Below are positions 31,582 through 55,757 of a DNA stretch of 64,000 nt, piece after piece. Positions within the stretch are counted from its first letter, which is position 1. Every line of letters begins with the position of its first letter. The stretch comes from Deltaproteobacteria bacterium (GTDB lineage: Bacteria; Myxococcota; Kuafuiibacteriia; Kuafuiibacteriales; Kuafuiibacteriaceae): NCBI GenBank assembly GCA_040218735.1, contig JAVJQW010000011.1:1-64000 (forward strand), given 5' to 3'. The position numbers and the translations under genes were made by a program. The notes beneath the pieces are model-generated. The model saw only the letters and a program-made list of their open reading frames with translations. It did not search any database and had not been told where the DNA came from.

Positions 31582-33804
31582 ATGACACGATTCGCCCTGG
31601 CGCGCGCCGGCGCCCTCTCGTTCCTCCTCATCGGATCCGCGTGCAGCGGCGGCAGCGACGACGACGGCGGCGACGACAACGTTCAGCAGACCGCTCCGGT
31701 CATCAACGCGTTCACCGTCAGCAGTGACTTCGTGCAGGCGAACGACGCGGTCATCGTGAGCTGGGACGTGTCGCGCGCGACCGAAGTGTCCATCAGCCAG
31801 AACGACGGACGCGACCTCGCACCCGTGACGTCGATGACGGTCGTCGGCTCCCAGAGCTTCGTCATCGTGCGCGACACGGAGTTCGTCATCGTCGCCACCA
31901 ACGCCATGGGTGAGACGGCGATGGCCACCGCCACCGTGGACGTCGACGGCATCCGGATCGACGCCTTCACGGCCTCCGCCACCAGCGTGAACCGCCTCGA
32001 CCGCGTCGACCTCAGCTGGATGATCGGCGGCGAGGACCCGAGCTCCGTCAGCATCGACGACGATCAGGGCAACAACGTGTACCAGGGCACGATGGCGCAG
32101 GGCTCCCTGGAGGTTCGTCCGGCCGCGACCGTCACCTACACGCTGACCGCCGAGGGCTCCACCGGGACGGAGACCGCCGAGGTCACCATCACCGTCGCGT
32201 CCAACCGCCCGACGATCGTGCGCTTCGTGGTCGAGCCCGACAACGTCGTGCAGATCAACGTCGAGGAAGCGAACCTGGTCTGGGAGACCACGGCCGACGA
32301 GGTGCAGGTTCTGCAGGACGGCGTCGCGGTGCGCCCGTGGAACTCGTTCGGCGCGTCGGCGGGCAACCTGCAGCGCCCGGTGACGACCGAGATGACGGTC
32401 TTCACGCTCCAGGCGCGCAACACGGCGGACCCGGAGGACATCGTCGAGGAGTCGGTCACCGTTACGGGCCTCGCGACGCCGACGATCGTGTCGTTCACCG
32501 TGACGCCGCTCGAGTACACCGAGAGCAGCACGATGGCGACGATCAGCTGGGAGGTCGAGACGACCGACACCGTCGAGATCCGGCTGAACAACACGGTGCT
32601 CCCCGGCTTCCCGAGCACGGACGCCACCGGCAGCGTCACGGTCCCGATCACCGGCGAGCCGCGCGTGCGGCTGCTCGCGACGAACCCGGTGACGACCGTC
32701 GAGCAGACGCAGCAGATCGTCTTCGGCTTCGACGAGCGCGAGCCGAACGACAGCGCGATCGACGCGATCCCGATCGAAGGCAACGGCATGGCGCTGCGCG
32801 GGACGATCTCCGATCCGACCGACGTCGACTGGTACGTGGTCGACGTCCCGCAGGACGTCCAGCTGAACGCGCGCGTCGGCATCGTGCAGGTGATGGGCAT
32901 CGACGTGTGCAGCTTCGACACGTTCGTGCGCGTCTACACCTCGACGCTCGCGGAGATCGGCAGCAACGACAACGGGCCGACGTCGATCTCGCCGTGCTCC
33001 GAGATCAGCCCGATCGCCAACGCGTTCGCGGAGCAGATGGACGCCGGGACGTACTACATCGCGGTCTCCGGCACCGGGACCACGCCGCAGGGGCAGTACT
33101 CGATCGTCGTGGAGTTCTCGCCGGTCGCGCCGCCTGCGCTCCCGCTGACGAACGTCACCGCGGTCGGCAACCCGACGTGGAGCGTGACCGGGCTGCAGAT
33201 GTGGGAAGGCCCGGTCGGAGCCACGGGTGAGCTCGTGCCCCCGGACTTCGACATGACGTTCGCGGACTACCACGCGTTCGCCGCGTTCGGGCTCATCTCG
33301 ATCCTGTCGCAGCCGCTGTCGCCGCTCCCGCGGAGCAACTACGACAACGTCCTCGCGCTGTTCCTCCACCGCGCGGGGTACACGGCGACCACGACGTTCC
33401 CGACGACTTCGCTGCTGAACGGGAACGCGATCTACATCGGCATGACGCTGGTCCCGAACGGCACCGCGCCCGTCGGTCCGTCCTTCGACTCGGTGAGCGG
33501 CCCGATCATCCCGAACGCCGCGTTCCCCATCGTCGTGAACATGACGATCCGAAACGGCGCGGCCGACTACCTCCCGGTCGATCCGCTGGACCTCCCGAGC
33601 TACGCCGGCTACGCCGCCGCGGGGCTCCCCCCGGTGCCGAACCCCGGCAACGGCGACGGCCACCGCCACCTGATCTCGCTGATCGCGGACTCCATCGCGC
33701 CGACGCCCGGCGGCAACCTGGTGGGGAGCTACACCTGGAACTACCAGCTCCGCGACGCGACCAACGCCGGCTACGACATCGTCGTGCCTTTCACAGTCCA
33801 GTAG
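31582..33804 (+). CDS. Lipoprotein with Ig-like repeats and a PPC-type domain
   Basis: Lipobox GSAC. Repeated P.I..F....W units. EREPND, DVDWY, SNDNG and AGTYYIAV motifs. Confidence 0.8.
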   Translation: MTRFALARAGALSFLLIGSACSGGSDDDGGDDNVQQTAPVINAFTVSSDFVQANDAVIVSWDVSRATEVSISQNDGRDLAPVTSMTVVGSQSFVIVRDTEFVIVATNAMGETAMATATVDVDGIRIDAFTASATSVNRLDRVDLSWMIGGEDPSSVSIDDDQGNNVYQGTMAQGSLEVRPAATVTYTLTAEGSTGTETAEVTITVASNRPTIVRFVVEPDNVVQINVEEANLVWETTADEVQVLQDGVAVRPWNSFGASAGNLQRPVTTEMTVFTLQARNTADPEDIVEESVTVTGLATPTIVSFTVTPLEYTESSTMATISWEVETTDTVEIRLNNTVLPGFPSTDATGSVTVPITGEPRVRLLATNPVTTVEQTQQIVFGFDEREPNDSAIDAIPIEGNGMALRGTISDPTDVDWYVVDVPQDVQLNARVGIVQVMGIDVCSFDTFVRVYTSTLAEIGSNDNGPTSISPCSEISPIANAFAEQMDAGTYYIAVSGTGTTPQGQYSIVVEFSPVAPPALPLTNVTAVGNPTWSVTGLQMWEGPVGATGELVPPDFDMTFADYHAFAAFGLISILSQPLSPLPRSNYDNVLALFLHRAGYTATTTFPTTSLLNGNAIYIGMTLVPNGTAPVGPSFDSVSGPIIPNAAFPIVVNMTIRNGAADYLPVDPLDLPSYAGYAAAGLPPVPNPGNGDGHRHLISLIADSIAPTPGGNLVGSYTWNYQLRDATNAGYDIVVPFTVQ

Positions 33805-33908
33805 GCCATTCCGAGTCCGGGTCCTCGAGAACCGACGGATCCGGACGCCAGCTCATTACTTCGTCCGTGAAAGCGACAAGTGTCGGCGAGTCGTTGGAAC
33901 CTCGCTGC

Positions 33909-34814
33909 ATGACGTCGATGTCGCCGTTCGAGCTCCTCAACTTTGGCGCCATTACGCCGAGGTGGGGACCGCAGCCCTTCATCGCGGCGCAGTCCGAACC
34001 GGTTCCTCCGGATCTCGAAGCGCTGTTCGGGACCGACGGCTTCCAAAGCGAGGCGTTTGCCCGACTCTTCACGGATCCCTGGCTGGCCTCAGCGGCCCTG
34101 AACCTCAATCTGGACCTCCCCGGGTTACTCGTCGCGCTGGTGCTGCACGAGCTCAATCGGCGGGACCCGCGGCCGAGCCGTGATGTCGGGACGTTGCCTC
34201 GCCACCACGGTCGCCCGCAGCGCGCAGCGCCTTGGACTCACCTCGCGGGCTCGAACGGAGGCGGTGCATCGAATGGGTCCGCAACCCAGCCCGCCGGCCC
34301 GGCCCCGTCTGCAAGTGCTCCCGCTGCGCCCGTCACGGCCAACGTCGCGACCGACCGGGCCCAGGTGCAAACGGCGCTCGACTTCGCCCTGAGCCACCAA
34401 GGTGCGCCCTACGTCGGCGGCGGCAGCCCCTTCCGTTTCGGCCAGCCGGGCGACGGCGGCACGTACCAAATGGCCGGGCAGAACGCCTATGTGTCACCGC
34501 GAGGCGTCGTTGGATTCGACTGCTCCGGTTTCGTCGTCGCCATGTACCGCCAGGCGGGCATCGACCTCGCCGCGCAGGGCATCGCCAACACCCGCAGCAT
34601 GCACGCCAACCTCCCCGCGGTCGGCCGAGGGGACCTGCAGCCCGGCGACCTCTTGGTGAAGCCGGGTTCGCATGTCGTGGTGTTCTTGGGCGACGTCACC
34701 GGCGACGGTCGACCCGATGTCATCGAATCCAAACCCGGCGGCGTCGCCGTCGGTGATGCGAGCAAGTTCTTGGACAATCCGGCCTACGAAGGCCGGCGCG
34801 TTCCCACGGGATGA
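33909..34814 (+). CDS. NlpC/P60 family peptidoglycan hydrolase with disordered N-terminus
   Basis: PYVGGG, GFDCSGFV, LQPGDL and HVVVF motifs. Start uncertain (33867-33918). Confidence 0.85.
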   Translation: MTSMSPFELLNFGAITPRWGPQPFIAAQSEPVPPDLEALFGTDGFQSEAFARLFTDPWLASAALNLNLDLPGLLVALVLHELNRRDPRPSRDVGTLPRHHGRPQRAAPWTHLAGSNGGGASNGSATQPAGPAPSASAPAAPVTANVATDRAQVQTALDFALSHQGAPYVGGGSPFRFGQPGDGGTYQMAGQNAYVSPRGVVGFDCSGFVVAMYRQAGIDLAAQGIANTRSMHANLPAVGRGDLQPGDLLVKPGSHVVVFLGDVTGDGRPDVIESKPGGVAVGDASKFLDNPAYEGRRVPTG

Positions 34815-34870: not shown

Positions 34871-35968
34871 TTAGCTGGCGCGGAGGGCTTGGTAGCGGAT
34901 GCGGTCGATGTGCTGGCGGGCGGCGAGGTCGGCTTCGAGCGGGGCGGCCCAGGCGGCGGCCTTCGCGGCGGGGCCGGCCGTGAGCTCGAAGAGCTCGGCG
35001 CCGAAGCCGCTGCCGTAGGAGAACGCGACGACGCTCTCGCCGCGCTCGGCGCCCGCGAGGGCGCGCGCGACGGCGAACCACAGGCTGCCCGTGTAGCTGT
35101 TGCCGATCTCGGTGTTCCAGGACATCGCGGGGGCGACCTTCTCGGCGAAGAGGCGCTCCGTCTCGTCGGCGCTCCACCCGAACGTCTCCCCGACGCGGCG
35201 CACCGCCTTCTTCACCATCTTCGGGAACGGCGCGTGGAGGCACGCGGCCGAGAGGGCTTCGATCTTCGCGCGCGCGTCGTCTTCGCCGACCCACGACGAA
35301 AAACACGCCGCCGCCGCGCGCATGTAACACTCCAGGCTGAACTTCCCGTCGACGCGCGGGAACGACTCACCGACCGGACGCCAGAAGTCGAACGCCGGCT
35401 CGGAGAACGCGTGCGCGTCGATGCCGACCGCCGCGACCGCCGGGTCGTGCACGATCATCGCGACCGCCCCTGCGCCCTGCGTCGCCTCGCCCGGATCCTC
35501 GGGCGCGTACAGCGCGACGTCGGCCGCGATCACCAGCGCCGCCTTGTCGCGAGCGGCTCCCGAGGCGCGCCACTCGACGGCCTGCCGCAGCGCGAGCGTG
35601 CCGCCGTAGCAGGCGTGTTTGACCTCGTACGAGCGGACCGAGCCGCGCACGCCGAGGCGGTCCGCGACGAACGCCGACAAGGGTCGGCTCATGTCCAACG
35701 CCGACTCGGTGCCGACCGCGATCAACCCGATATCCTCCGCGCTGCCGCCCCAGCTCTCGAGCGCGCGGCGCGCCGCCGTCTCGGCGAGGTCCACGACGCC
35801 GTACCCCTCGGGGCACAGCGCCATCGTTCGGCAGCCGAGGCCGACCGTGTACTTGTCGGGGTCGACGCCGCGGAGCGCAGCGAGCTCGGTGACGTCCATC
35901 GCGAGCGGAGGAACGGCGAGGCCGAGCGCAGCGATGCCAGTGGATTCGGGGCGGTGGTCTTCACGCAT
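34871..35968 (-). CDS. mvaS: Hydroxymethylglutaryl-CoA synthase family protein
   Basis: GTES, KHACYGGT, EATQGAGAVA, HAPFPKM, GNSYTGS and FSYGSG motifs. Confidence 0.9.
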   Translation of the reverse strand: MREDHRPESTGIAALGLAVPPLAMDVTELAALRGVDPDKYTVGLGCRTMALCPEGYGVVDLAETAARRALESWGGSAEDIGLIAVGTESALDMSRPLSAFVADRLGVRGSVRSYEVKHACYGGTLALRQAVEWRASGAARDKAALVIAADVALYAPEDPGEATQGAGAVAMIVHDPAVAAVGIDAHAFSEPAFDFWRPVGESFPRVDGKFSLECYMRAAAACFSSWVGEDDARAKIEALSAACLHAPFPKMVKKAVRRVGETFGWSADETERLFAEKVAPAMSWNTEIGNSYTGSLWFAVARALAGAERGESVVAFSYGSGFGAELFELTAGPAAKAAAWAAPLEADLAARQHIDRIRYQALRAS

Positions 35969-36142
35969 GGGTAGGATCTCGGGGTCGCGCGCTAACACGA
36001 CCCGCGAGGGTCGTCACGCCCGCGGTCACAACCAACGACCGTCGAGGCTGCTTCCCCAAACGCCTAGGGGCCCGTGCGGGAACAAGGTGGCCGTTCTCCG
36101 CGAGCGCCGCCGAGAACGGTCAGATTATCCCCGCACCGGCCC

Positions 36143-36379
36143 TTAGGTGCTGACGAGGCAATAGCGACCGTCGAGCTGCACCACGCGCCACCGCGCGCCG
36201 CGCCACTCGACGACCTGCTCCGCGCCGACTTCGAGCTCGGTACCCGTGAGCTTCACGCGAACGACCAAACCGTCCTCGACGACCGCGCCGTCGTGCACGT
36301 CGATCGCCGGGACGCCGCGCGGCGCCTCGTCCGCGACCGGTGTCGTGCCTTCCGAGAAACGATTCGTCTTCGGCTTCAC
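36143..36379 (-). CDS. Small beta-rich hypothetical protein, last gene of the AAA operon
   Basis: GTG start overlaps the upstream TGA. Leader MKPKTNRF. Confidence 0.65.
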   Translation of the reverse strand: MKPKTNRFSEGTTPVADEAPRGVPAIDVHDGAVVEDGLVVRVKLTGTELEVGAEQVVEWRGARWRVVQLDGRYCLVST

Positions 36380-38289
36380 AGGCGATCTTCTCCGCGCACG
36401 AACCCGTCGGCCCCCGACGAGAACGACGCGACGTCGAAGTCGAACCCTTCGTCCTTCGGCGTCACCCCGACGATGACGGTTCTGAACCCCGGGAACAAGG
36501 CGACCTCACCGCGCGCACCTTCGAGGTCCCCCTCGGAGAACAGCGGCGACTCGTCCGGGTGCGAGTGCACCTTTGCGCGGATGTCGAGGCCGAACGCCTG
36601 TACCAGCCGGTCGACGTGTTCGACGTCCTCCGGGTGCACCACGCCCATCGAGTGGCCCATGTCCGTCCCGTGCAGCAGGTTCCGCACCGGCAGGAAGCGG
36701 TGCGCCGCGCCGTCGTAGACGAGGTACCCCATCCCCTCGAACGGGAACGCCTCGGCCATCGCCGACTTCATGTCCGCGACCACGCCGGGCTCGAGCCCCA
36801 GCTCGTTCGCCCCCAGGTTGCGCTCCAGCGCCTCCGTCTCGCGCACCGTCTGACGCGCGGCGATCGAAGCCTGCGCGAGCGCGTCGACGTGACCCGCGAG
36901 CTCCTGCGCGACGACCTCGATGCCGTCACGCTGACACTCGGCGACGAGACCATCGACCACGGCGTCGAGCGCACCTTCACCGCGCGCCCACTGCGCGAGC
37001 GCGCCGAGGCGCTCGGACGCCTTGCCCTCTCCGGGCGGGCCATAGCGTTCCAGCAGCGCGACCGTCCCCTGCCGAACCGCCGCCGAACGCGGCCCCGCGT
37101 CGCGGAACATCCGCGCGACGGACGCGAGCTCGGGCCGGCGCCCGATCGCATCACGGAGATCATCACCGATGCGGCGCAAGCCATCTTGCAACAGACGCGC
37201 GTGCAAGTGCTCCGCCTTCGCGCCGATCGGCCCCGGCGCGTCGAGGTCCGCGAACACCCGGCTCCCGTGCCGCGGGTCTGCGAGTGACGCAATCGTCGCC
37301 GCGACGTCCACGTTCGACGTGACCTCGGCGGCGAGCTTCGGGCCGAGGTGTTTCTCGAGCGACTCGAACACCAGACCCAGACGATCTCCAGCCAAGCGTT
37401 GCCGGTTCACCATCGCGACGAACACGTCGTCGTGGGACGGGCCCGCGACCGGATCCGAGAGCCCCTCCGCGATCCGCTGGGCCTGCGCCTGGAGGACCTC
37501 GGAACCCTTGGGATCGATCGTGAGTGCGCGCAGCGAGGCACCGGTCGCAGAACCTCCGCGCCGCGCCTCGATGTCCTCCATCGTCGCGAAACGCTCGTGC
37601 GCGGACTGCATGAAGTTCGCGAAGCCCGCGAGGTCGGAGGCGTCCGCGCCCGCGAGCTCGGTGAGGAACGTCTCCGCGGAGTCGATGCCACACGCCTGCG
37701 CGAGGGCCCCCCACGCAAACGGGGACGCGCGCCCCACGCGATCGATCAGCATCGCGAGATTCGACGTGTCGTCCTCGGCGGTGTGTGAAGCCACGACCGC
37801 CGTCGCGATCGAACGCCCGAGCGCGAGCTGCGCACCACCGCTGGTGTCGACGTTGGGACGCGGCGCCGCCGCCCGCATCAGCGCGGCGAAGCTCGTGGTG
37901 ATGCTCGCGTCGTCGCGCGCGAGGAGCTGCTCCGCGGCCTCTTCGGCCGTCATCAGCGGCGAGTGACCGCACAGGGTGTGAGCGACGTCGAAGAGCGCGT
38001 CCGAGAACGCCTGCCGATTGACCGTGCCGTCCTTGCCAGCCGCCAGGACACTCGCGAGCTTCGCGGACCCACCGCCTTCGGCCATGCGTTGTCCGAGCAC
38101 CGCCTCGAGCGCCCACACAAATTCGGTCTTGGCGTTGCCCGAGAACGCGGCCTTCTCGAACTGCGCCGCGAGCTCCGGTCCGAGGAGGTCCGCCGGTGTG
38201 GTGCGCGGCGCTTCGGGCTCCTCGGTCTTCGCGGTCCGTCGAACCCGGTTGGTGTTGTCCGCCGCGCCGGGTCCGCCCAGCGGTTTCAT
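36376..38289 (-). CDS. Large protein with C-terminal JAB/MPN+ (JAMM) metallopeptidase domain
   Basis: AFPFEGMGYL...VHSHPDESPLFSEGD fits E...HxH-x7-S-xx-D. ATG overlaps the radical SAM stop (ATGA). Confidence 0.85.
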   Translation of the reverse strand: MKPLGGPGAADNTNRVRRTAKTEEPEAPRTTPADLLGPELAAQFEKAAFSGNAKTEFVWALEAVLGQRMAEGGGSAKLASVLAAGKDGTVNRQAFSDALFDVAHTLCGHSPLMTAEEAAEQLLARDDASITTSFAALMRAAAPRPNVDTSGGAQLALGRSIATAVVASHTAEDDTSNLAMLIDRVGRASPFAWGALAQACGIDSAETFLTELAGADASDLAGFANFMQSAHERFATMEDIEARRGGSATGASLRALTIDPKGSEVLQAQAQRIAEGLSDPVAGPSHDDVFVAMVNRQRLAGDRLGLVFESLEKHLGPKLAAEVTSNVDVAATIASLADPRHGSRVFADLDAPGPIGAKAEHLHARLLQDGLRRIGDDLRDAIGRRPELASVARMFRDAGPRSAAVRQGTVALLERYGPPGEGKASERLGALAQWARGEGALDAVVDGLVAECQRDGIEVVAQELAGHVDALAQASIAARQTVRETEALERNLGANELGLEPGVVADMKSAMAEAFPFEGMGYLVYDGAAHRFLPVRNLLHGTDMGHSMGVVHPEDVEHVDRLVQAFGLDIRAKVHSHPDESPLFSEGDLEGARGEVALFPGFRTVIVGVTPKDEGFDFDVASFSSGADGFVRGEDRL

Positions 38290-39575
38290 ACCCCGTACTC
38301 CGAGCGGTCCGCGCCCACGACGACGGCGAGCCCGGCGTCCTTGAAGCGCTGCTGGGTCGACTCCACCTCTTCCGCGGTCACCGGCCGATCGATCTCTGGC
38401 GAGCGGAACGTCGTGAACGTCGGCGTCCACTGGTCCATCAGGTGGACGCGCATGTCCTTCGACACGGACGCGAGGAAGTCGGCGATCTTGCCGGAGTCGG
38501 TGACGTCATCCGGCATGATGAGGTGCCGAACGAGGAGCCCCTCGTACGCGACGCCGCGGTCGTCCTTCTTGAGATCGCCGACCTGCCGGTGCATCTCGCG
38601 CACGGCCTCCTGCACGTTGTCCCAGTAACCCTTCGTACCGCCGTAGCGCTGCCCCGCGTCGTTGTTCCCGAACTTCACGTCGGGGAGGTAGACGTCGACG
38701 ATGCCGTCGAGCTCCTTCAGCGCGTCGAGGTCTTCGTAGCCGCCTGTGTTGTAGACGAGCGGGATCTTCAGCCCCTGGTCGGCCGCCATCTGCACCGCCT
38801 CCAGGATCTCGACGATGAAGTGGGACGGCGTCATCAGCTGGATGTTGTGCGCGCCGCGGTCCTGCAAATCGAGGAAGGTCTCGGCGAGCTCCTTCACCTT
38901 GATGTCGTCGCCGCCCTTCATGTGCGCGATGTCCGCGTACTGGCAGAACGAACACGCCATGCTGCAGCTCGAGAAGTAGACCGTGCCGCTCCCCTGCACG
39001 CCGGAGATCTCACGCTCCTCGCCGACGTTCAGGTTCTTGCCGCCGATGCGCAGCGGCACCTTCTTGCGGAACACGCCGTACTTGTCGGTGTCGCGGATGT
39101 CCTTCAGACGGTCGATGCGCTCCTTCAGCTCGCCGCTCTGCGCGAGCGCAACGTAGCTTGCGGGACGGAAGACGTCGTCCGCTCCGCCCGGCCAGTCGAC
39201 GCGGAACTCCGCGAGGCGCGCCTGCTGCTTTTCGTCCATGCAGATGGCCTGCGCGAGCGGCACCTGCTCCATGGTGAGGTCGAGGAACTCGAGCGTCCCG
39301 TCGTCCCGGATGTGCAGCGAACCCTGGTCGTAGCTGACGTCGCTCTTCGCAATCGTCCGCAGCGCGACCAGCGACTCCTTCTCCGCGGGGGTCGCCTTCT
39401 TGTACGGCGTCCGCTCCTGCGAGGACGTAGCCGCGCGTTCAAAACCGCCCTGCCCGGCCGGCGCCTTCGCCTTCTTCTTCGGCGCGGACGCAGACGACGC
39501 ATCGCCCGAGCCGCGCACCTGGGTGCCCGACTCGGTCGGCGTCGCCCCGCCGGTCTTGCGGCTCGCGCGGGTCAC
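38286..39575 (-). CDS. PflX-like (COG1313) radical SAM protein with N-terminal extension
   Basis: GEE..ISG..GSGTVYFSSCSMACSFCQ, GAHNIQLMTPSH, VYNTGGY, DVYLPDVK and LLVRHLIMP motifs. Confidence 0.88.
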   Translation of the reverse strand: MTRASRKTGGATPTESGTQVRGSGDASSASAPKKKAKAPAGQGGFERAATSSQERTPYKKATPAEKESLVALRTIAKSDVSYDQGSLHIRDDGTLEFLDLTMEQVPLAQAICMDEKQQARLAEFRVDWPGGADDVFRPASYVALAQSGELKERIDRLKDIRDTDKYGVFRKKVPLRIGGKNLNVGEEREISGVQGSGTVYFSSCSMACSFCQYADIAHMKGGDDIKVKELAETFLDLQDRGAHNIQLMTPSHFIVEILEAVQMAADQGLKIPLVYNTGGYEDLDALKELDGIVDVYLPDVKFGNNDAGQRYGGTKGYWDNVQEAVREMHRQVGDLKKDDRGVAYEGLLVRHLIMPDDVTDSGKIADFLASVSKDMRVHLMDQWTPTFTTFRSPEIDRPVTAEEVESTQQRFKDAGLAVVVGADRSEYGV

Positions 39576-39576
39576 G

Positions 39577-39858
39577 CTACTGCTTGGAGGCGTTGAGGCC
39601 GACCTCGCCGCGCACGACCTTGCCCGGATCGTCCGGCTTGTCCTCGAACCGATCCGTGTTGCGCGCCTCGGTGATCTCCAGCCCTGCGAGCGACTGGAGC
39701 GCCGCGTAGTGCAGCGCCGCGCACGCGTCGCCGATCCCCTGGCCGCTGTGGTCGCTGATCTCGACCTTGTCGCCCGTGATCGAGATGTTCATCTGGACGT
39801 CCACCACGTAGGTGCCGTCGGTCATCGCCTTGAAAGGCTTCGCTCGAATATCGCTCAT
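39577..39858 (-). CDS. DUF2997-like small protein
   Basis: ISITGDKVEI..GQGIGDACAALHYAAL..LAG..ITEARNTDRF resembles the DUF2997 pattern. GAGGAG RBS upstream. Confidence 0.55.
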   Translation of the reverse strand: MSDIRAKPFKAMTDGTYVVDVQMNISITGDKVEISDHSGQGIGDACAALHYAALQSLAGLEITEARNTDRFEDKPDDPGKVVRGEVGLNASKQ

Positions 39859-39868
39859 CTCGTGCTCC

Positions 39869-40540
39869 TCAGGTCTGGACCATGGCGCGACGCCGACGCG
39901 CCGCAACCGCCGCGCGCGTCCGCTCGGGCATCTTCAGATCCCCGGAGTGCTGCGCGATGACACCCGCCGCCTGGCTGGACGCCTTCGGGTTCACGACCAC
40001 CTTGGCGGTGAACTTGATGTCGAGGCCGCCGTCCGGACGGACGACGACGTTCGGCTCCACCATCATCTGCGGGTTCTTCTCGATGTGCGTGAGCACCTGC
40101 CCCGCGCGCGCGAGCTGCACGACCTTCTTGATCGCGGCTTCGACCTTCGCCTGCGTGAGCCCCACCGCGCTCGCGGTGATCGTCGCCTGGCCGTTCTCAC
40201 CGGCCTGGTACTGGAGCGTGAGCCCGTCGACGCTGATGTTGTTGCCGTTCACCTTCACGTCGAGGCTCGGGATGCGCGAGTCGGAGAGCGCCTTGTTCAC
40301 GTCCTCGAGGTTCACGCTCATCTGCGCCTGCACGCGGTTGGGCTGCGGAGCGCGGTACACGACCTGCGTGTAACCGTACGTCCGCCGCGACTGCACCGCG
40401 CCCGAGAAAGCCGCGAACGCCGCACCGGCCTCCGCTCCGACCCCCTCGGTCGTCGACGCCGCCTGCGTCGCCTGCGCCGCCGGCTGACCGCTCTCGACCT
40501 CACCGGCCGCGAATCGTCCGTTGTCGTTCTTGATCTTCAT
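39869..40540 (-). CDS. DUF1257/Ycf35-like protein with N-terminal leader
   Basis: NLEDVNKALSD...IKKVVQLARAGQVL...RPDGGLDIKF resembles the DUF1257 architecture. GGAG RBS. Start MKIKNDNGRF. Confidence 0.5.
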   Translation of the reverse strand: MKIKNDNGRFAAGEVESGQPAAQATQAASTTEGVGAEAGAAFAAFSGAVQSRRTYGYTQVVYRAPQPNRVQAQMSVNLEDVNKALSDSRIPSLDVKVNGNNISVDGLTLQYQAGENGQATITASAVGLTQAKVEAAIKKVVQLARAGQVLTHIEKNPQMMVEPNVVVRPDGGLDIKFTAKVVVNPKASSQAAGVIAQHSGDLKMPERTRAAVAARRRRAMVQT

Positions 40541-40544
40541 GCCA

Positions 40545-43043
40545 TCACTCCTGCGGCGGCGCCGCGTCATTCTCGACGACGTTCACCGGTACGCCTTCGC
40601 CGACATCCGGGGCCGACGCATCCTTCTTGATCGTGCGCGACTTGCCTTCGAGCGCGTCGCGAATCCCTGCGCTGTCGATCTGCTTGAGGACCTCCGCGAT
40701 GAGGTCCTTCGGCACGTGCGAGCGCACGAGCCGCAGCACCTCGCGGTCCCCCTTGTCGGCGGCGGCGCGAACCAGGCCGACCATCGCTTTCTCGGTCATC
40801 AGGTTCGGCACGGCGAGCCTCAGCGCCGCCTCCAACCGAACCATCGCCTGGTGCTGCCCCGCGTCCATGTCCTTGACGTCCGTCCCGACGGTGTCGTCCG
40901 CCATCTGGACGATCGCGTCGCGCGCCAGCTTCGTCGTCTCGACAGAACCCGCGAACGCGAGCGCGATGGACGACGGGTCCTGCTTCAGGTCGACCATGTT
41001 CCCGAGCTCTTCGCGGTTCGCGAACTTCCCGAGATCACCGATCGCGCGCGCGAGGCTCACGTGCCCCTGCGGCTGCCGAAGCACCAGCTCCGCGACGCGC
41101 CGCACGCTCCCCGAGAGCAGCTCGACATTCGATACGGTCTTCAGCGCTGCGAGCGCGTCGGCCGCGCCGTTGACCGAGACGTTCGCGCCGCCCCACTGCA
41201 CGTTCTGCGGTCCGTTGGCCTGCGGGACCTCCTCGACCAGCTTGTCGAGGAGCTCGTTGGCCTTGTTCATCGAGCCGATGTCGTCACCGTGCCGCGCGAG
41301 CACGCCGACGAGCCCGGCGACGAACGGCGACAACCTGAAGCCCGCCCCTTCGACCGCGGTCTGGACCTTCGACACGAGGTCCTCGGTCTGCTCGGGCGAA
41401 AGCGGCGCGTCCGCGTTCGTCAGCGCGTTGAGGATGCGCTGCGCGGCCGGGAGCTGCATCGGTTTGTTGGGATCCAGCGCGACCTCGATGCCGCGGAGGT
41501 AGCTCTGGCCGATCCACTCCTCGGTCGGCTTCTTGCCGAGCTTGCCCCCCTCGGCGAGCGCTTCGAGGCCCGCGTCCGTCGCCGCGGCGAACATCCGCGC
41601 CTGGCGCGCCGGGTTCTGACCGTCGTCGATCTCGTCCCACAGCTCGTCGAAGAACAGCTCGTACGCCTTGTCGAACTGACCGTGCTCCAGGAAGCCGGTG
41701 ACGGCCGCCTCGAGCGCGTTGAGCTTCGTCGTCGCGTTCGTGATGAACTCACGAATCATCTCGACGGCCTTGTCCGCCACGGCGGGATCCCGCGTGAGCT
41801 GACCGACGAGCGACTGCATCGGCCCGTCCTGGTCCATCGCGGCCGCCTGCAGCATGAGCGCCTGGCCCATCTCACACGCGGCGCGGTGCCCCTCCTTCGC
41901 GTCCTTGCTCTCGAGGTCGGGGTAGACCGTCCCGATCAGCTTCACGAAGCGCGCGACGTTCTGGTTGAACGCCGTCACCTCGGTCTTGTGCGCCTTGTAG
42001 GGCGTGCCGTCCTCCTGCGCCTTCGCCTCCGTCAGGACGCCGAGCGCCTCGGGCATGCGCGCGAACAGCTCCGCGTCCTTCTGCGACACCTCTAGCGCCG
42101 AGCCGAAGGCGGCGATCGCCGGAGCGTCGAGCGGCGCCGTCCGCTTCGTCGCCCCCTCGATCATGTTGTCGAGGTGCGCCGCGATACGGCCGCGCGCGGC
42201 CTTGACGTCCGTCGCCTTGCTCGACCCGAGGAAGATCGCGTCGACCTCGATCTGCTTGGCGCGACCGGTCTCGCCGTCGATCTCCTTCGCGAGGCGAGTC
42301 GCCTCGCGGTTGTACTCCATGACCTCGGACTTGGTGGAGCCGAGGTCCGTGAGCTTCGTCAGCGCTTCTTTCAGGACGTTGAGCGCCGCCTCGCGGTTCT
42401 CCGGCGTGCGGTTCTCCGCGACCTGCACCGACTGCACCGCCGCCTTCGCCATGCGCACCAGGAACTCACTCTGCGCCTCGGGCGCGAGGCCGGGCGTCGC
42501 CGCCATCTGGCGGAGCGTCCCGATCAGCTGCATCGGCTCGTCGAGGTACGCCTGGATGTCGGTGTTGCGCTCGATGATCTCGAGGCCCAGCCGCGTCATG
42601 TCGACCTCGGCCGAGTCACGCAGCTCACGCATCTCGCCGAGGTGTTTGTCGAACTCGTCGAGGAAGTCGACGACGAGGGTCCGCTGCAGCACCACGTCCG
42701 CGTCGGCCTTCTTCTGCGCCGACGCCTTCGCGCTGCCCGACGCGATCATCGCGAGGTAGCCCTTGAACGCCATCAACAGCAGCGGGTCCTGCAGGACCTT
42801 CTCCTGGAACGCGACGTCGAGCCGGTCGGCGCCGACGATCGCCTCCTTCGCCTCGCGCAGCTTCTCTTGGAACTGCTCGGTGGTGATGCGCTTCGAGAAC
42901 ACCCCCGAGTCGTTGCCGAACAAACGCGTCGCCGCCTTGTCGACGACCGCGGTGAGGTCCGAGAGGCCCACGCGCTGGGTCGACGCCGCCTCGGACGTGA
43001 CGTTGGCGCCGGGTGAGAACCGGTTTCCGTTCTGAATCTTCAT
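40545..43043 (-). CDS. 832-aa all-helical hypothetical protein
   Basis: Strong codon bias, amphipathic or coiled-coil helices, GGGGAGAG RBS. No recognised domain. Confidence 0.8.
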   Translation of the reverse strand: MKIQNGNRFSPGANVTSEAASTQRVGLSDLTAVVDKAATRLFGNDSGVFSKRITTEQFQEKLREAKEAIVGADRLDVAFQEKVLQDPLLLMAFKGYLAMIASGSAKASAQKKADADVVLQRTLVVDFLDEFDKHLGEMRELRDSAEVDMTRLGLEIIERNTDIQAYLDEPMQLIGTLRQMAATPGLAPEAQSEFLVRMAKAAVQSVQVAENRTPENREAALNVLKEALTKLTDLGSTKSEVMEYNREATRLAKEIDGETGRAKQIEVDAIFLGSSKATDVKAARGRIAAHLDNMIEGATKRTAPLDAPAIAAFGSALEVSQKDAELFARMPEALGVLTEAKAQEDGTPYKAHKTEVTAFNQNVARFVKLIGTVYPDLESKDAKEGHRAACEMGQALMLQAAAMDQDGPMQSLVGQLTRDPAVADKAVEMIREFITNATTKLNALEAAVTGFLEHGQFDKAYELFFDELWDEIDDGQNPARQARMFAAATDAGLEALAEGGKLGKKPTEEWIGQSYLRGIEVALDPNKPMQLPAAQRILNALTNADAPLSPEQTEDLVSKVQTAVEGAGFRLSPFVAGLVGVLARHGDDIGSMNKANELLDKLVEEVPQANGPQNVQWGGANVSVNGAADALAALKTVSNVELLSGSVRRVAELVLRQPQGHVSLARAIGDLGKFANREELGNMVDLKQDPSSIALAFAGSVETTKLARDAIVQMADDTVGTDVKDMDAGQHQAMVRLEAALRLAVPNLMTEKAMVGLVRAAADKGDREVLRLVRSHVPKDLIAEVLKQIDSAGIRDALEGKSRTIKKDASAPDVGEGVPVNVVENDAAPPQE

Positions 43044-43070
43044 GACTGTTCGCTCTCCCTGACCTCGGCG

Positions 43071-45308
43071 TCAGACCGAATCCATGGCCGACGGGTTCAC
43101 CCCCGCGCGCCGCGCCGGACGCTCCGCCGAGGGCGCCTCGCCCTGCTGCGCCGCCGGTGCCACCGGTGCCTCGCCCGTGCTCGGGTCGAGGATCGCCTTC
43201 CCGCTCGCCGACTCGTACGCCGACGCCTGCGCCAGGATGACCTGCGCTCGGAACGGGTCCTTCTGGTAATCCGTGCGGTACCCCTCGAGGCCCTTCTCGA
43301 TGTCCTTCAGCGAGATGACCTCGTCCTGGTCCGGACGATCCACCAGCGCGACTTCGCGGGCCGCGTTGATCGCGTGGTAGACCTCGCGACCCGAGATCGT
43401 CGGGAACGCCTCCACCAGCTTCTTGATCTGCGCCGGCTTGAGATCGTGCCCGTCCGTGAGCGCGTCGAGGTTCGACTTCCAGATGTCGGCGAGCCCCTCG
43501 GCGTCCTGGTAACCGACGAAGTACTTCGCCGGCGAACGGCTGACGAACGCGCTCGACAGCTTCTGCGGCTCGTTGCACGTGCCGAGCAGGAGGATGTCGC
43601 TCTTGTGCTCCTCGATCCACGTGAGGAGCAGGCCGTGCACGCGGTCGGTCACGCCGCCGTCGTGCGCGCTCGTGCCCTCCGCCGAACCGCCGAGCGCCTT
43701 CTCGATCTCGTCGAGCCACACCACGCAGGGCGCGAGCGACTCGAGCAGCTCGAACATCCGCGCGAAGTTCGACTCCGACTCTCCGACGAACTTGTTGAAG
43801 AGCTTCGCGAGGTCGACCTTCACGAGCGGCATGTCGAGCTTCGACGCCGCGCTCTTCGCGACGAGTGACTTACCCATGCCGGGCACACCGGCGAGGAGCA
43901 TCATCTTCGCGGCCTGCAGCGGCTTCTTGCGGGTCTGACCGGCCTTGAAGACCGCGCGCAGGCGGTCGAGCTTGTTCATCACCGCGCCGAGGCCCATCGG
44001 CTCCGGCATGTTCGGGTCGTGGCGGACGAGCTCGATGTTGAAGTTCTTCTTCAACATGTCGAAGCGACGCCGCGAGATGAACTCGAAGTCGATGCGCCGG
44101 TCCGAGCTCCCCGACGCGCGGCTCACGGCCTCACCCATGAGGTCCTTCGCCTGGTGCGTCGTGAAGCCGATCAGCTGCTGCGAGAGATCCGGGAGCGTCT
44201 TGCCCTCGGGCAGGAACTCCTTGAACTGGTCGAGCGTGATCCCGTCCGCGATCGCGTTCCGGATCATGCCTTCCTTGAGGTCGTCGCCGACGACCTCAAG
44301 CCAGGCGCCGATCTCCTTGTCGGTGACGTCCTCGGGCGCCTTCTCCTCGCCCGCCGCGCGACCCCACAGGTAGCCGGTGACGGAGCCGAACACGAGCCCG
44401 GCCATCATCCGCTTGGTGGGCATCGGCATCGAGTAACCCGAGCCGAGCTCCGCGGCGGTCGTCGGCATCATCGACGGACCGTCGTTGAAGATGATGTGTT
44501 TCGTCGTCGACGTGGTGTCCATGCGACCGCGCATGTCGACGAGCTGCTGGTAGATGCGCCCGTTGCCGACGGCGCCGTCGAGGTCCGCGCGCAGGTGCGG
44601 CCCCATACCGTTGAGCGTGAAGATGATGCGACCGCGTTTGTCCTGGTTGCCGGCCTGGACCCGGTCCACGGCCTGGAGCGTCTCGTTGGGGCTGAGCAGA
44701 TCGTTGATCGCGTCGGTGCCGTCGCTGCCGTACAGGAGGCGCTGCAGCCCCTTGTTGTTGTACGTGCTGCGCTCGGTCTCGTCCGTGAGGTCCTTGTACG
44801 GGACGACCGTACCGTTGTCGTCCGAGTACGCGACCGGCGTGCCGTCCTGCGGGTACAGCTCGAGCCACCCGCCCGCCGAGGACCAGGTGATGAGGCGGAC
44901 CGGCCCCGCGTCGACGTCTTCACGCGCGAACGTCCCGGCGACCTTGACCGAGGCCGCGAGCACGCGGTCGGGCTGCGTGCCTTCGCTGAAGATGTACGGC
45001 TGGCCGCCGTGCACGTGGTAGTAAAGCTCGGCCGACGGGTTCTCCGCCGCGGACTTGCTGCACACCGCGCCGATGGAAGCGAGGCGCCCCTCGAAAGCGT
45101 CGAGCGTCTTCTGCATCGCCGCCGCGATCGCGCCCAGCGCACCGCCCTGCTTGCGGGTGGGGTTGAACCGGCCGCCCTGCGGATCCGGTAGACCGCTCGC
45201 GGCCTGGAAGCCGAGTTGCTCGGCGCCGCGCTGTTGGGTCTCGGCGACCGGCGTGGCTTCGTTCGCCCCGCCGGCATTCGTCTTCAGGCCGTCGTTCTTC
45301 AGCTTCAT
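43071..45308 (-). CDS. Ycf46-family AAA+ ATPase with N-terminal leader
   Basis: GVPGMGKSLVAK, VGESES, APCVVWLDEIEK and DGGVTDRVHGLLLTW are Ycf46-type motifs. Confidence 0.88.
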   Translation of the reverse strand: MKLKNDGLKTNAGGANEATPVAETQQRGAEQLGFQAASGLPDPQGGRFNPTRKQGGALGAIAAAMQKTLDAFEGRLASIGAVCSKSAAENPSAELYYHVHGGQPYIFSEGTQPDRVLAASVKVAGTFAREDVDAGPVRLITWSSAGGWLELYPQDGTPVAYSDDNGTVVPYKDLTDETERSTYNNKGLQRLLYGSDGTDAINDLLSPNETLQAVDRVQAGNQDKRGRIIFTLNGMGPHLRADLDGAVGNGRIYQQLVDMRGRMDTTSTTKHIIFNDGPSMMPTTAAELGSGYSMPMPTKRMMAGLVFGSVTGYLWGRAAGEEKAPEDVTDKEIGAWLEVVGDDLKEGMIRNAIADGITLDQFKEFLPEGKTLPDLSQQLIGFTTHQAKDLMGEAVSRASGSSDRRIDFEFISRRRFDMLKKNFNIELVRHDPNMPEPMGLGAVMNKLDRLRAVFKAGQTRKKPLQAAKMMLLAGVPGMGKSLVAKSAASKLDMPLVKVDLAKLFNKFVGESESNFARMFELLESLAPCVVWLDEIEKALGGSAEGTSAHDGGVTDRVHGLLLTWIEEHKSDILLLGTCNEPQKLSSAFVSRSPAKYFVGYQDAEGLADIWKSNLDALTDGHDLKPAQIKKLVEAFPTISGREVYHAINAAREVALVDRPDQDEVISLKDIEKGLEGYRTDYQKDPFRAQVILAQASAYESASGKAILDPSTGEAPVAPAAQQGEAPSAERPARRAGVNPSAMDSV

Positions 45309-45387
45309 CTGGGTATGGTCCTACGCATCAGGGTGTGGTGTTCGTCCACGATGTGACCACCGGTTCGGCACCGGGGCCATCCGTCGT

Positions 45388-45393
45388 ATTATA
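45388..45393 (-). promoter_or_regulatory. Candidate -10 box (TATAAT) for the AAA operon
   Basis: Perfect TATAAT 80 bp upstream of the 45308 start, in an AT-enriched intergenic stretch. No clear -35. Confidence 0.45.
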
Positions 45394-45455
45394 CGTGCGT
45401 CTCTTACATTCCTACCATGGAGAAATGCTGAGTCACTAGCGATCCCGGAGGTCGG

Positions 45456-46814
45456 TCAACGATCCGAGGCGTGACCTTTGGGGGTGACCGGGAGCACGAT
45501 CGTGAACCGCGCGCCGCCCTCCGGGCGATCGTCGACGCCCACCCAACCGCCGTGGGCCGTGACGATGCGATCCACGAGGGCCAACCCCAGTCCGAGGGAG
45601 CCCCGCTCGCTCGCGCCCTTCTGCAGCGGGGCGAAGATCCGGTCGCGGTCCTCGCCCGGCACGCCCGGCCCGGCGTCCTCGACGGAGAAGGCCACGCCGT
45701 CGTCCGCCTCCGCGACCCGCACTGCCGTCACCCCGCCCCCGTGACGCTCCGCGTTGTCGAGGAGGTTGGCGAGCGCGCGTGCGAGGAGCGTCGCGTCCGC
45801 TACGAGATGGGGGTCCCCCTGAACCTCGAGCAGCGTGGACGCGAGGGCCCGTCGTTCGAGCGCGGCGGCGGCGACGTCCTTCGCGACGAGGCGCTGCGGG
45901 TTCACCACGCCGAAGTCGAGCTTGCTGCTCGCGAGCAGCTCGCCGACCAAGCGATCGATCTCCGCGATCTCCGACTCCATCCCGTCGAGCGACTTCGCGA
46001 GCTTCTCGGGCGCGGCCTGCCGCTGCCGCACCAACTCGATCAACACCCGCAGGTGGCCGAGCGGCGTCCGCAGCTCGTGGGACACCGCCGCGAGGAGCTC
46101 GCGTTGATCCTCGAGCTGTTTTTCGAGGCGCTCCGCCATGTCGTCGATCGCGTCCGCGAGCACCGCGACTTCTTCGGTGCGGTGCCGCGACAGGTGCGTG
46201 CGTCGCGACAGATCGCCCTGCCCGATCCCCTCCGCGACCGACGCGACGTGGGAGAGCGAGCGCGTGATCCGGCGCGCGATCATCAGCGACGCCATCCAAA
46301 GCACGAACCCGACGAGCACCAGCACGAAGAACACCTTGAAGAGCCCGCCGGGGGGGTGGAGGTTTTGGCGACACAGCGCGAGGTGCCCGAACACCACGCC
46401 GTCCTTCGCGAGCGGGACGTCCATGCGGTGCGGGATGAAACACTCCGACGGACCGACCTCGGAGAGGAGGCGGCGGTCCCCGTCGAGCACCTGGATCGAC
46501 AGGTCGAAGTCATCTGCAAGTTGTCTTGCGTACGCGTCCCGCGCGGCCGGATCGGCCCAGGCGTCGGAGAAGTTCCGCGACAGGTGCGTCGACAGGCGAT
46601 CGATGTCGCGGCTCCACTCGGACCCGAACACCCGCCCGAGCCCCCACACCGCGAGCGTCGCCATCACCACCGTGAAGAGGATCGACGCGCCGAACCAGTG
46701 AAAGATCCGTCGCGCGAGAGGACGCGCCGACCGCATCCGCCGGTGACGCGCCCACGGCGGCCCGTGGCCGTGGTGCCACCCACGCCGGTGGTGGTGGTGC
46801 GGCGAGCACTTCAT
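45456..46814 (-). CDS. HAMP-HisKA sensor histidine kinase with His-rich N-terminus
   Basis: VSHELRTPL, NLLDNA, DAGPG and GLGLGL motifs. Two TM helices. Confidence 0.95.
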   Translation of the reverse strand: MKCSPHHHHRRGWHHGHGPPWARHRRMRSARPLARRIFHWFGASILFTVVMATLAVWGLGRVFGSEWSRDIDRLSTHLSRNFSDAWADPAARDAYARQLADDFDLSIQVLDGDRRLLSEVGPSECFIPHRMDVPLAKDGVVFGHLALCRQNLHPPGGLFKVFFVLVLVGFVLWMASLMIARRITRSLSHVASVAEGIGQGDLSRRTHLSRHRTEEVAVLADAIDDMAERLEKQLEDQRELLAAVSHELRTPLGHLRVLIELVRQRQAAPEKLAKSLDGMESEIAEIDRLVGELLASSKLDFGVVNPQRLVAKDVAAAALERRALASTLLEVQGDPHLVADATLLARALANLLDNAERHGGGVTAVRVAEADDGVAFSVEDAGPGVPGEDRDRIFAPLQKGASERGSLGLGLALVDRIVTAHGGWVGVDDRPEGGARFTIVLPVTPKGHASDR

Positions 46815-54422: not shown

Positions 54423-55700
54423 CTACGGGCGCAGCGGCGCCACTAAGAAGTCAACGTCGACACGACCGTTCTGCGGCGCGCGGTTCGCGACGATCAGCGT
54501 CGCCGTCAGCCCCACGACCACCGCGCCGCCGACGGCCGTCCACACCCACCACTTCTCGTACCACTGCTCCGGTCGCCGCTCGAGCTCGGCCCACACCGCG
54601 GTGGTGTCTCCCGGCTCGACGTAGGCGTCCTGTTGCCAGTCGAAGTACCCGCCCTTCACGAGGCGGACGCTGTGCCGCCCGCTCTTCAGCTCGGGGATCG
54701 GCGGCAGCGGCAGCTCGCCGACGCGCTCGTTGTCGACGTACACCTCGGCGGCTTCTTGCGACGCCGTCACGACGAGCGCACCGCCGCTCGACGCTTCGAG
54801 GCCGAGGAGCGATCGCGCCGCGTGATTGATCGCGCGGATGAGTTGGTCCTCGGTCCCCTTGAACGACTCGGTGATGCGGTTGTCCGTCTTCACCTCGTTC
54901 GGATCGATCAAACGCAACGAGATGAAGTACGTCTCGCCGAGCGTCCCGACGCTCCCGCTGATGAGTTTGTCGACGCCCAGCGCGCCGCCCAGCTCCGCGA
55001 CGCAGGACGTGTCGCAGTCCTCGCCGACCATCTGGTTGAGCTTGTCGAGCGAGAGGAGCGCGACGAGGTCGTCGCGGCTGATCACCGTCGCGCCTTCGAC
55101 GCGTTTGATCGCCGCGGAGAGGAGCTGCGTGAGGTTGGCCGTGACCTTCGCGTCGACGCCCGTCGCTTGAAGGTCCAACACGGCGAAGGAGAGCTTCGTA
55201 CCCTGCGGGAGGTGGTACGCGACCTTGGTCTCGGCGCCCTCCAACCCGAGCAGCCGCGCGACGGCGACCTTCAGCTGGGCGTCGAGCTTCTCGAGGTTCG
55301 GGACGTTCACACTCTCGCGCCCGAGGGGCGCCGCCTGATCCGGCGACACGAGCGTCAGCGTCGCGACGAACGTCTTGCCGACGCGCCCCACGGTCGTCGC
55401 GATGACGAGATCGGTCTTCGACGCCTTGGTGACTTCGGCGACACACGCCGCGTCTTCTTCGCAGCCGACGAGGCCCTTGGTCTTCTCGAGATCGAGGACC
55501 CCCTGCAGCTCCTCGGGCGTCACGACGCGCACCTCTTCGCGCGCACCGAGGGCCTCCGCCATGCTCGCGATCGCCCGGACCCCGACGCTCTCTTCGACGC
55601 CGATGACGTTCGGCTTCGCAAGGAAGACGGAGCGCGTCCCTTCCGCGAGCGCGTCGGCGCTCACGAGGGTGAGCGCGAGCAGGATGCAGGAGCCTTTCAT
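54423..55700 (-). CDS. PEGA-domain secreted protein with two CsgG/DUF2380-like domains
   Basis: Signal peptide, two C..CVAE modules, AEVYVD..VG..P..GRHSVRLVK.GY and a PEQWYEKWWVW tail. Confidence 0.85.
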   Translation of the reverse strand: MKGSCILLALTLVSADALAEGTRSVFLAKPNVIGVEESVGVRAIASMAEALGAREEVRVVTPEELQGVLDLEKTKGLVGCEEDAACVAEVTKASKTDLVIATTVGRVGKTFVATLTLVSPDQAAPLGRESVNVPNLEKLDAQLKVAVARLLGLEGAETKVAYHLPQGTKLSFAVLDLQATGVDAKVTANLTQLLSAAIKRVEGATVISRDDLVALLSLDKLNQMVGEDCDTSCVAELGGALGVDKLISGSVGTLGETYFISLRLIDPNEVKTDNRITESFKGTEDQLIRAINHAARSLLGLEASSGGALVVTASQEAAEVYVDNERVGELPLPPIPELKSGRHSVRLVKGGYFDWQQDAYVEPGDTTAVWAELERRPEQWYEKWWVWTAVGGAVVVGLTATLIVANRAPQNGRVDVDFLVAPLRP

Positions 55701-55757
55701 TCGTGTTTCATCCTACCTCAGAGTAGACGCGCGCGCCGCCCTCGACATTCGGTTCGA

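Follow-up and report, generated by a model that had tools for sequence, protein, structure and literature searches.

A rare seven-gene cassette of a myxococcotal genome, very probably a derived member of the Ycf46-type AAA+ module family

The DNA analysed here (the window) is a stretch of 64,000 nt from contig JAVJQW010000011.1 of a Deltaproteobacteria bacterium (phylum Myxococcota), which carries at positions 36143–45308 a cassette of seven open reading frames (ORFs), all on the minus strand and named g1 to g7. The cassette is very probably a derived member of the family of modules organised around a Ycf46-type AAA+ ATPase. A more specific reading, to which we give slightly more credit than doubt, takes it for a very divergent and enlarged member of the Ycf46-type AAA+/DUF1257/DUF2997/radical-SAM module family working by the mechanism proposed below. 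As such it would be an extreme natural variant, in which the ATPase and the radical SAM enzyme were kept, the small partners were replaced or remoulded, and a JAMM protease and proteins with an N-terminal Arg-Phe (RF) tag were added. An earlier reading of the same DNA from its sequence alone (the original prediction) was largely right about the core but stays unproven for g3 and g4; what appears to be new here is the conserved N-terminal RF peptide of g2, g3 and g7. The genes and the region ahead of them are the following:

g1, 43071–45308, minus strand: 745 aa, divergent Ycf46-type AAA+ ATPase
g2, 40545–43043, minus strand: 832 aa, orphan without family match
g3, 39869–40540, minus strand: 223 aa, slot of DUF1257
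g4, 39577–39858, minus strand: 93 aa, slot of DUF2997
g5, 38286–39575, minus strand: 429 aa, GTG start, radical SAM enzyme of a PflA/NrdG-like branch
g6, 36376–38289, minus strand: 637 aa, Ala-rich N-terminal region and C-terminal JAB/MPN+ metalloprotease
g7, 36143–36379, minus strand: 78 aa, GTG start, translationally coupled to g6
Upstream non-coding stretch, 45309–45482, minus strand: private to the cassette, contains TATAAT

The seven co-oriented genes, with spacings of 27, 4, 10 and 1 bp and two 4-bp overlaps, were recovered as first described when the distances were recomputed from the coordinates, and each gene had a coding-like G+C content at third codon positions (0.83–0.93). The single TATAAT box was borne out in part: the hexamer is present on the minus strand at ~45388–45393, ~80 nt 5′ of the g1 ATG, but no full −35/−10 pair was found in a promoter scan of that strand. 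In the promoter/terminator scan, terminator-like sites were no commoner than in shuffled sequence. Three of the proteins matched a Pfam family, namely g1 (AAA, E 1.6e-26), g5 (Radical_SAM, E 9e-10) and g6 (Prok-JAB, E 4.5e-8); none was found in g2, g3, g4 and g7.

All seven genes were present in identical order in G011 (locus L004), a genome from another genus of the same family, and this shared order is more than chance. The identities between the window proteins and their G011 orthologs (named h1, h5 and so on) were, from g1 to g7, 48, 38, 35, 60, 60, 29 and 33%, the g7 pair being weak (E 0.04), and the catalytic motifs of g1 (Walker A and B, pore loop), g5 and g6 were kept in both genomes. 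The flanks are unrelated, since none of nine flanking window proteins had a match in the G011 locus, and in G011 the neighbour upstream of the cassette is divergently oriented. In the window the cassette lies between a histidine kinase upstream and an HMG-CoA synthase downstream; in G001, a 75% complete genome of the window's own genus, the orthologs of these two genes stand on one contig ~90–120 bp apart with no cassette between them, so that about 9.5 kb of the window (roughly 35944–45482, including the edges 35944–36142 and 45309–45482) occupies the place of a short spacer. Because all seven genes are kept in order in G011 within unrelated flanks and are absent as a block between the adjacent flank orthologs of G001, they form one discrete accessory block travelling together. 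As to the direction of the event behind the G001 difference, insertion or loss, we can only infer it. An independent sample also yielded a 47.8-kb contig with the cassette in the same flanks, with 105 differences in 12.6 kb, and the reads showed no trustworthy joint skipping it, all listed joints having sides of 20–34 nt. At the cassette borders neither an integrase nor a convincing flanking repeat was detected, and the window contained no tRNA genes.

The cassette is very rare. The g2 protein was present in 2 of 41 related genomes and formed only 5 clusters among 5.8 billion proteins, while a search of 185,579 species genomes led to a single locus, that of G011; metagenome contigs searched with the g2 alignment and with a g3 relative (P0019) gave no further locus. 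For g1, g2, g4, g5, g6 and g7 two to five sequences each are known.

The placement of the cassette starts from its ATPase. The following elements of g1 were located in an alignment with h1 and four canonical ATPases:

43866–43889, minus strand: Walker A, GVPGMGKS
43773–43793, minus strand: pore loop with an aromatic residue, KFVGESE
43701–43724, minus strand: Walker B
43617–43661, minus strand: family signature DGGVTxRVxGxxLTW, after Walker B
43518–43550, minus strand: arginine pair of the second region of homology, diverged

Judged by its sequence, g1 is a genuine but divergent two-domain Ycf46-type AAA+ protein, and the label Ycf46-type given to it originally stands. Aligned with hhalign, g1 and h1 matched five canonical ATPases at 99.9% (E 5e-32) over both domains: a private N-terminal extension (residues 1–92) is followed by residues 93–657, which align to the whole canonical two-domain protein (residues 10–460), built of a degenerate N-domain and an active classical AAA domain. 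The family phrog_8638 was the top PHROG for g1 (142 bits), for h1 (170 bits) and for all four canonical module ATPases tested, albeit at far higher scores in the latter (435–503 bits). g1 scored higher against canonical ATPases of other genomes (110–128 bits) than against the nearest paralog within its own genome of 11.6 Mb (77–89 bits), and in a tree g1 and h1 were sister to the canonical clade, split from four other AAA proteins of the window's own genome with 98/97 support. The closest solved ATPase domains were those of Cdc48/p97 D2 (E 5e-29).

The second line of evidence is gene order. That Ycf46-type ATPases co-occur with DUF1257 and DUF2997, as stated in the original prediction, was confirmed by their adjacency both in Myxococcota and on a RefSeq-annotated Nostoc plasmid carrying the AAA, DUF1257 and DUF2997 trio. 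The DUF2997 model was found in 36 of 401 sampled genomes of the phylum, and the Myxococcota loci that were fetched (including L039–L042) had the order AAA (~520 aa), DUF1257, DUF2997, with a radical SAM gene directly after DUF2997 in G038 (L040) and G041 (L039). The cassette has the same arrangement: g3 lies between the ATPase and the DUF2997 slot, as in L039–L042, and g4 lies downstream of the DUF1257 slot and directly upstream of the radical SAM gene, as in L040 and L039. Relatives of the ATPase were found in 673 plasmid records (573 of them conjugative) and 73 phage records. Both Ycf46 and Ycf35 are reading frames conserved in cyanobacteria and plastids. According to the accessible parts of the respective sources, DUF2997-ycf35-fed7 is a cyanobacterial gene cluster (PMC4284462), the ycf46 operon of S. 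elongatus is induced by stress and ppGpp and its ATPase interacts with KaiC (PMC13683863), and DUF1257 and DUF2997 are noted only as ecotype predictors (10.1101/2025.10.13.678797).

Three further loci with Ycf46-type ATPases were seen on the way. The window's own genome encodes a second such ATPase on another contig (G000:C18; L054 9283–10776, minus strand, and 8086–9266, minus strand), 497 aa long and scoring 523 bits over its full length against the module hidden Markov model (HMM), followed by three bactofilin genes and three small unknown genes, with DUF1257 and DUF2997 not detected there. A divergent module of a 12.5-Mb genome (L043, G368:C1, 9096–17919, minus strand) includes a Ycf46-type AAA protein, a 1108-aa SF1 helicase, two orphans (400 and 747 aa), a weakly matching DUF2997 (E 3.5e-6) and a protein of 142 aa with a DUF1257-like-looking tail recognised by no model. 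On the Treponema succinifaciens plasmid NC_015386.1 (L053, 61913–66137) an ATPase relative stands between a small 4Fe-4S cluster-binding protein and an annotated phage baseplate assembly protein V.

The two small proteins in the slots of DUF1257 and DUF2997 have the following features:

40511–40540, minus strand: N-terminal tag of g3, MKIKNDNGRF; first ~60 residues disordered
40001–40360, minus strand: alpha+beta core of g3, residues 61–180 (AlphaFold2 model)
39872–39901, minus strand: basic C-terminal tail of g3, ARRRRAMVQT
39721–39753, minus strand: invariant loop of g4, DHSxQxIGDAC
39634–39660, minus strand: invariant NTDRFxxKP of g4

A HMMER search of 1.84 billion representatives gave 12 relatives of g3, 7 of them full-length; the full-length set, with four relatives known before that search added, comprised 10 sequences, all of which have a basic C-terminus matching [KR][KR]R[TS]Q[LVI][VI]G. 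The AlphaFold2 model of g3 (12 sequences) reached a mean predicted local distance difference test (pLDDT) score of 67.8 (76–89 in the core) and had a beta-alpha-beta4-alpha-beta2 topology behind the disordered N-terminus; no solved DUF1257 structure was found. A match of g3 to HrpD5 in NCBIfam (E 7e-4) was treated as noise at 19 bits against a cut-off of 300. g4 is the most conserved protein of the cassette (99, 78 and 60% identity to its three known relatives), and its ESM Atlas model had a pLDDT of 0.42, with no match reaching 0.9. The labels 'DUF1257-like' and 'DUF2997-like' of the original prediction thus agree with the gene positions in the canonical modules but draw no support from the sequences, to which neither Pfam, local HMMs nor hhalign gave a significant match: the kinship of g3 and g4 to these families is positional only and not assignable by sequence.

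The remaining proteins carry the following elements:

38943–38966, minus strand: CX3CX2C motif of g5, CSMACSFC
39051–39422, minus strand: private N-terminal domain of g5, residues 52–175, from the alignment of radical SAM relatives
36721–36747, minus strand: catalytic Glu of g6 in FPFEGMGYL
36526–36567, minus strand: part of the JAMM motif of g6, HSHPDESPLFSEGD
36356–36379, minus strand: N-terminal tag of g7, (M)KPKTNRF
43017–43043, minus strand: N-terminal tag of g2, MKIQNGNRF

By sequence comparison g5, for which the original prediction named the PflX family, is a radical SAM protein; it and the relatives described below all fall in the PflA/NrdG/AmmeMemo branch and score well under all curated cut-offs. 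Its CX3CX2C motif was invariant in all eight aligned sequences, and its core was 40–48% identical to a stand-alone radical SAM family of ~310–350 aa present in 60 of 401 phylum genomes. Both g5 and h5 (L004 13386–14693) are without the N-terminal CxxCx3C...C motif carried by the six other aligned relatives and have a private domain of ~120 aa in its place. The best matches of g5 in NCBIfam were weak ones to NrdG2 (22.9 bits against a cut-off of 131), PFLA and hydroxyproline dehydratase activase, its relatives matched TIGR04337 weakly, and no solved relative was found by sequence. The JAB protease read earlier from g6 is present, with an intact active-site motif and predicted activity: Prok-JAB was matched at 33.4 bits (Pfam cut-off 25), and g6 and h6 both have the complete JAMM signature Glu ... 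HxH x7 S xx D, behind ~500 Ala-rich residues of unknown kind in g6. For g2 the ESM Atlas gave no model, the best feature score was 0.78, and no lead came of it, as was also the case for g4.

The third line of evidence is the short peptide at the start of g2, g3 and g7 (MKIQNGNRF, MKIKNDNGRF and (M)KPKTNRF, respectively). The G011 orthologs of these three proteins have TRFQ within their first 13 residues, and in four of the six proteins the RF is the sole one, g2 having a second at residue 365. Eight of the 10 full-length g3 relatives start with M-[KRI]-[IV]-x(1-6)-RF, and the other two have AF instead. Among 4985 coding-like ORFs of the window's own genome, RF within the first 14 residues occurred in 4.65%, and together with a start of the type M[KR][ILVP] in 0.16%; a loose tag pattern applied genome-wide gave 87 candidate starts of 407,924, ~44 of them with coding-like composition, and none of the 87 outside the cassette closely resembled the tag. 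Similar short motifs occur within the canonical modules. Of 16 distinct canonical ATPase tails, 8 end in ...VPRPIA[AST]RFG, the others including tails of the R-K-I-E-I-D type. In 12 zinc-ribbon accessory proteins, encoded between the ATPase and DUF1257, the disordered region ahead of the ribbon contains 45 Phe residues, of which 32 are preceded by Arg, and each protein has two to four [DE]RF motifs, including TDRFRPP. In the cassette, g4 too contains an RF, in its invariant NTDRFxxKP. The RF motif may be a docking signal, and whether it is these peptides that bring g2, g3 and g7 to the machine seems to us evenly balanced.

Several observations weigh against placing the cassette in the module family. 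The long branch of g1 is a caveat on its place in the tree, and its arginine pair is altered: canonical LRKGRFDE corresponds to V--SRSPAK in g1 and to L--SRMNSK in h1, with a two-residue deletion and loss of the second Arg. For g3 and g4, Pfam gave no DUF1257 or DUF2997 match even at E ≤ 10; the PF06868 model had no match in the entire own genome, and the DUF2997 family model (PF11211) had none at the cassette locus. Local HMMs made from 20–22 phylum members scored g3 against DUF1257 (20 members) at E 0.6 and g4 against DUF2997 at E 0.77. With hhalign, the enlarged g3 family matched DUF1257 at P 0.066 (probability <1%) over 38 columns comprising the C-terminal helix and a DG hairpin only, and the g4 family matched DUF2997 at P 0.098 (probability 0.6%), although this weak alignment was collinear over 54 columns (22–79 of g4 with 6–60), with G..C, L..G and T..[FY] in register. 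A radical SAM gene adjoins DUF2997 in only 2 of the 36 genomes, and g5 is only 31–37% identical to these two DUF2997-linked enzymes, i.e., nearer to the stand-alone genes. Finally, the tag pattern was defined only after being seen, and in a high-GC genome the use of AT-rich codons at the beginning of genes would also be expected to give starts rich in Lys, Asn and Ile.

With these reservations, the following mechanism is proposed for the cassette as a divergent Ycf46-type module. g1, probably a ring-shaped protein unfoldase or segregase, would unfold proteins or pull them apart; its mechanics may differ from those of canonical members because of the long branch and the altered arginine-finger region with its two-residue deletion. 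g2, g3 and g7 would be directed to the machine by their common N-terminal peptide 'M-K-I-K-x(2-5)-R-F', a local variant of the short RF motifs of canonical ATPase tails and zinc-ribbon partners, and g3 and g4 would stand in for DUF1257 and DUF2997. The substrate of g5 would be a partner protein, most probably g4, which is small and under strong constraint, or a client bearing the tag, a modification that we propose tentatively. The JAMM protease g6 would cut off a peptide, for example a tag or an extension at the C-terminus, and g7 may be its substrate. As to the biological role, conflict or defence is possible though doubtful, and stress proteostasis is rather unlikely; the patchy distribution, the block indel behaviour and the ATPase relatives in 73 phage and 673 plasmid records fit a conflict role without showing it. 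The furthest extension of the proposal, speculative and improbable as it appears, is a self-contained protein-modification machine without ubiquitin-type chemistry, in which RF peptides would deliver proteins to the Ycf46-type unfoldase, g5 would place a radical-derived mark or cross-link on g4 or on clients, and the JAMM protease would reverse or mature the mark.

Among the alternatives, a reduced or aberrant FtsH-ternary conflict system survives best, being nonetheless improbable. Such systems combine an AAA protein, a peptide-modifying radical SAM enzyme, JAB and helical proteins in programmed cell death or immunity of multicellular bacteria (Kaur, Burroughs, Iyer and Aravind 2020). As far as the accessible part of the description goes, their AAA protein is of the inactive-plus-active kind, sometimes with a private N-terminal domain, the radical SAM enzyme is of the Memo-AMMECR1 type, the helical proteins are unique, and the systems are enriched in deltaproteobacteria (Kaur et al. 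2020, eLife, PMC7159879), so that the described parts match the two-domain AAA, radical SAM, JAB and helical proteins of the cassette as well as its host group. The inactive-plus-active build of g1 found with hhalign and the patchy, indel-like distribution of the cassette are consistent with this. However, neither MoxR (AAA_3) nor vWA was detected among the cassette proteins or among 37 more ORFs of the window, a very divergent vWA in g2 not being excluded; no E1, E2, RING or zincin peptidase was found among the cassette proteins; and DUF1257 and DUF2997 are absent from the accessible text of PMC7159879. The nearest g1 paralog, on contig C18, was considered as an own-genome reference for such a system and rejected, being the Ycf46-type ATPase beside bactofilins mentioned above and not a MoxR-vWA system.

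Quite unlikely is a cluster for the maturation of a ribosomally synthesised and post-translationally modified peptide (RiPP), in which g4 or g7 would be the precursor, g5 a maturase whose private N-terminal domain reads the RF leader, g6 the peptidase removing that leader, and g1 a chaperone in an accessory role. The small conserved proteins adjoining a radical SAM enzyme and a protease, the private 120-aa domain of g5 and the leader-like common peptides would suit such a cluster, but the tagged proteins include ones of 832 and 223 aa, g5 falls in a branch resembling protein activases, and no exporter or transmembrane segment was found in the cassette. Nor was there a SPASM or PqqD/RiPP recognition element (RRE) signal: Pfam found nothing of the kind, and an RRE nature of the g5 N-terminal domain was dismissed as unsupported, the PqqD model (PF05402) having no match at the locus. 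The same domain did not match DUF2997 in hhalign (P 0.036 over 11 columns).

Still weaker is a non-canonical ubiquitin-like (Ubl) tagging, in which g7 (or g4) would be a tag trimmed by JAB after QLDG, and g1, as unfoldase, would receive the proteins so tagged. An AAA unfoldase combined with a JAMM protease is reminiscent of the proteasome lid, the JAB gene g6 is translationally coupled to g7, and g7, in which the tag is followed by a strand-rich domain of ~55 aa, shares the conserved QLDGR with its counterpart h7b, after which the tails are variable and unrelated. Yet no E1, E2 or other activating enzyme was found among the cassette proteins, and the observation of the original prediction that no E1/ThiF or Ubl gene is present was upheld by Pfam, which detected no E1, E2 or Ubl family in g1–g7. 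Moreover, g7 appears, as judged by eye from its sequence, to be all-beta without a helix segment, has no Gly-Gly, and is known from two sequences with a weak match (E 0.04).

The delivery of the cassette proteins as effectors into prey or host cells, offered in the original prediction, is scarcely credible: only the predatory lifestyle assumed for such bacteria and the Tse3-like muramidase gene 30 kb away speak for it, but no signal peptide or membrane helix was found in g1–g7, in which the Kyte-Doolittle mean over 19 residues reached 1.5 at most, the flanks of the cassette contained no genes for secretion, tails or injection, and the tags resemble the module's own internal motifs.

Elsewhere in the window, a protein with the catalytic domain of a Tse3-type peptidoglycan muramidase of the type VI secretion system (E 1.6e-41) is encoded at 5360–7141 (plus strand), followed by a 746-aa ORF without family. 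Another ORF of 740 aa without Pfam family (31582–33804, plus strand) adjoins an NlpC/P60-domain protein (33867–34814, plus strand) between nuo genes and HMG-CoA synthase. Two very long frames (>1500 aa) with Kelch or beta-propeller repeats at 54447–60260 and 59498–64000 (both plus strand) have overlapping coordinates, and their gene models need checking.

Full-text literature searches found no description of the seven-gene cassette or of the four-gene core of AAA, DUF1257, DUF2997 and radical SAM. The original statement that no described system combines such parts is in line with these searches for the cassette as such and has to be qualified for the FtsH-ternary systems, which, by the accessible part of PMC7159879, combine a two-domain AAA with radical SAM, JAB and alpha-helical proteins of their own. 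This FtsH-ternary class, defined by MoxR and vWA, comes nearest among the systems described. Compared by description only, it shares these four kinds of parts and the host group with the cassette; it differs in its defining MoxR and vWA, not detected in 44 window proteins (7 of the cassette and 37 further ORFs), and in the E1/E2/RING or zincin peptidase, not detected among the cassette proteins.

More partial likenesses were found to three other systems. The AAA core of g1 matched the IetA models of the anti-phage pair IetA/IetS (E 4e-20 to 8e-20), but with the core only, at 71 bits against a cut-off of 510, and canonical Ycf46-type ATPases matched the model equally; an IetS-type protease was not found, and PADLOC had no match in g2–g7. 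With the PflA and NrdG activases and the AmmeMemoRadiSam enzyme g5 has in common the single CX3CX2C cluster, whereas its NrdG2 score is far below the cut-off, and no glycyl-radical enzyme, Memo or AMMECR1 gene was found in the cassette. The 19S lid/base of the proteasome (Rpn11 JAMM on the AAA ring) and Cdc48-Npl4 likewise associate an unfoldase having an aromatic pore loop with an MPN-family protein, but this resemblance is one of logic only, as no proteolytic core or ubiquitin-like tag was identified in the cassette.

The closest comparison is with the Ycf46/Ycf35 (PF06868)/DUF2997 (PF11211) set of cyanobacteria, plastids, plasmids and phages. The cassette has the same two-domain ATPase family, shares with L040 and L039 the order AAA, small protein, small protein, radical SAM, and has, like that set, RF-type short motifs on the partners. 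In contrast to it, g3 and g4 of the cassette are not recognisable as DUF1257 and DUF2997; g1 is longer by a 92-aa extension, contains several insertions and differs in its arginine-finger region; g5 is without the N-terminal Cys motif and has gained a private domain; the 832-aa g2, the JAMM protein g6 and g7 are added; and the tags are at the N-termini. Since the cassette is rare and its hosts are hard to grow, its practical value is mainly comparative. For the whole Ycf46 family it raises the ideas that the machine may act on proteins, that partners may dock via RF motifs, and that radical chemistry and proteolysis may be coupled to unfolding; if true, an RF-motif docking code would also explain the substrate choice of the Ycf46/Ycf35 module in cyanobacteria, plastids, phages and plasmids.

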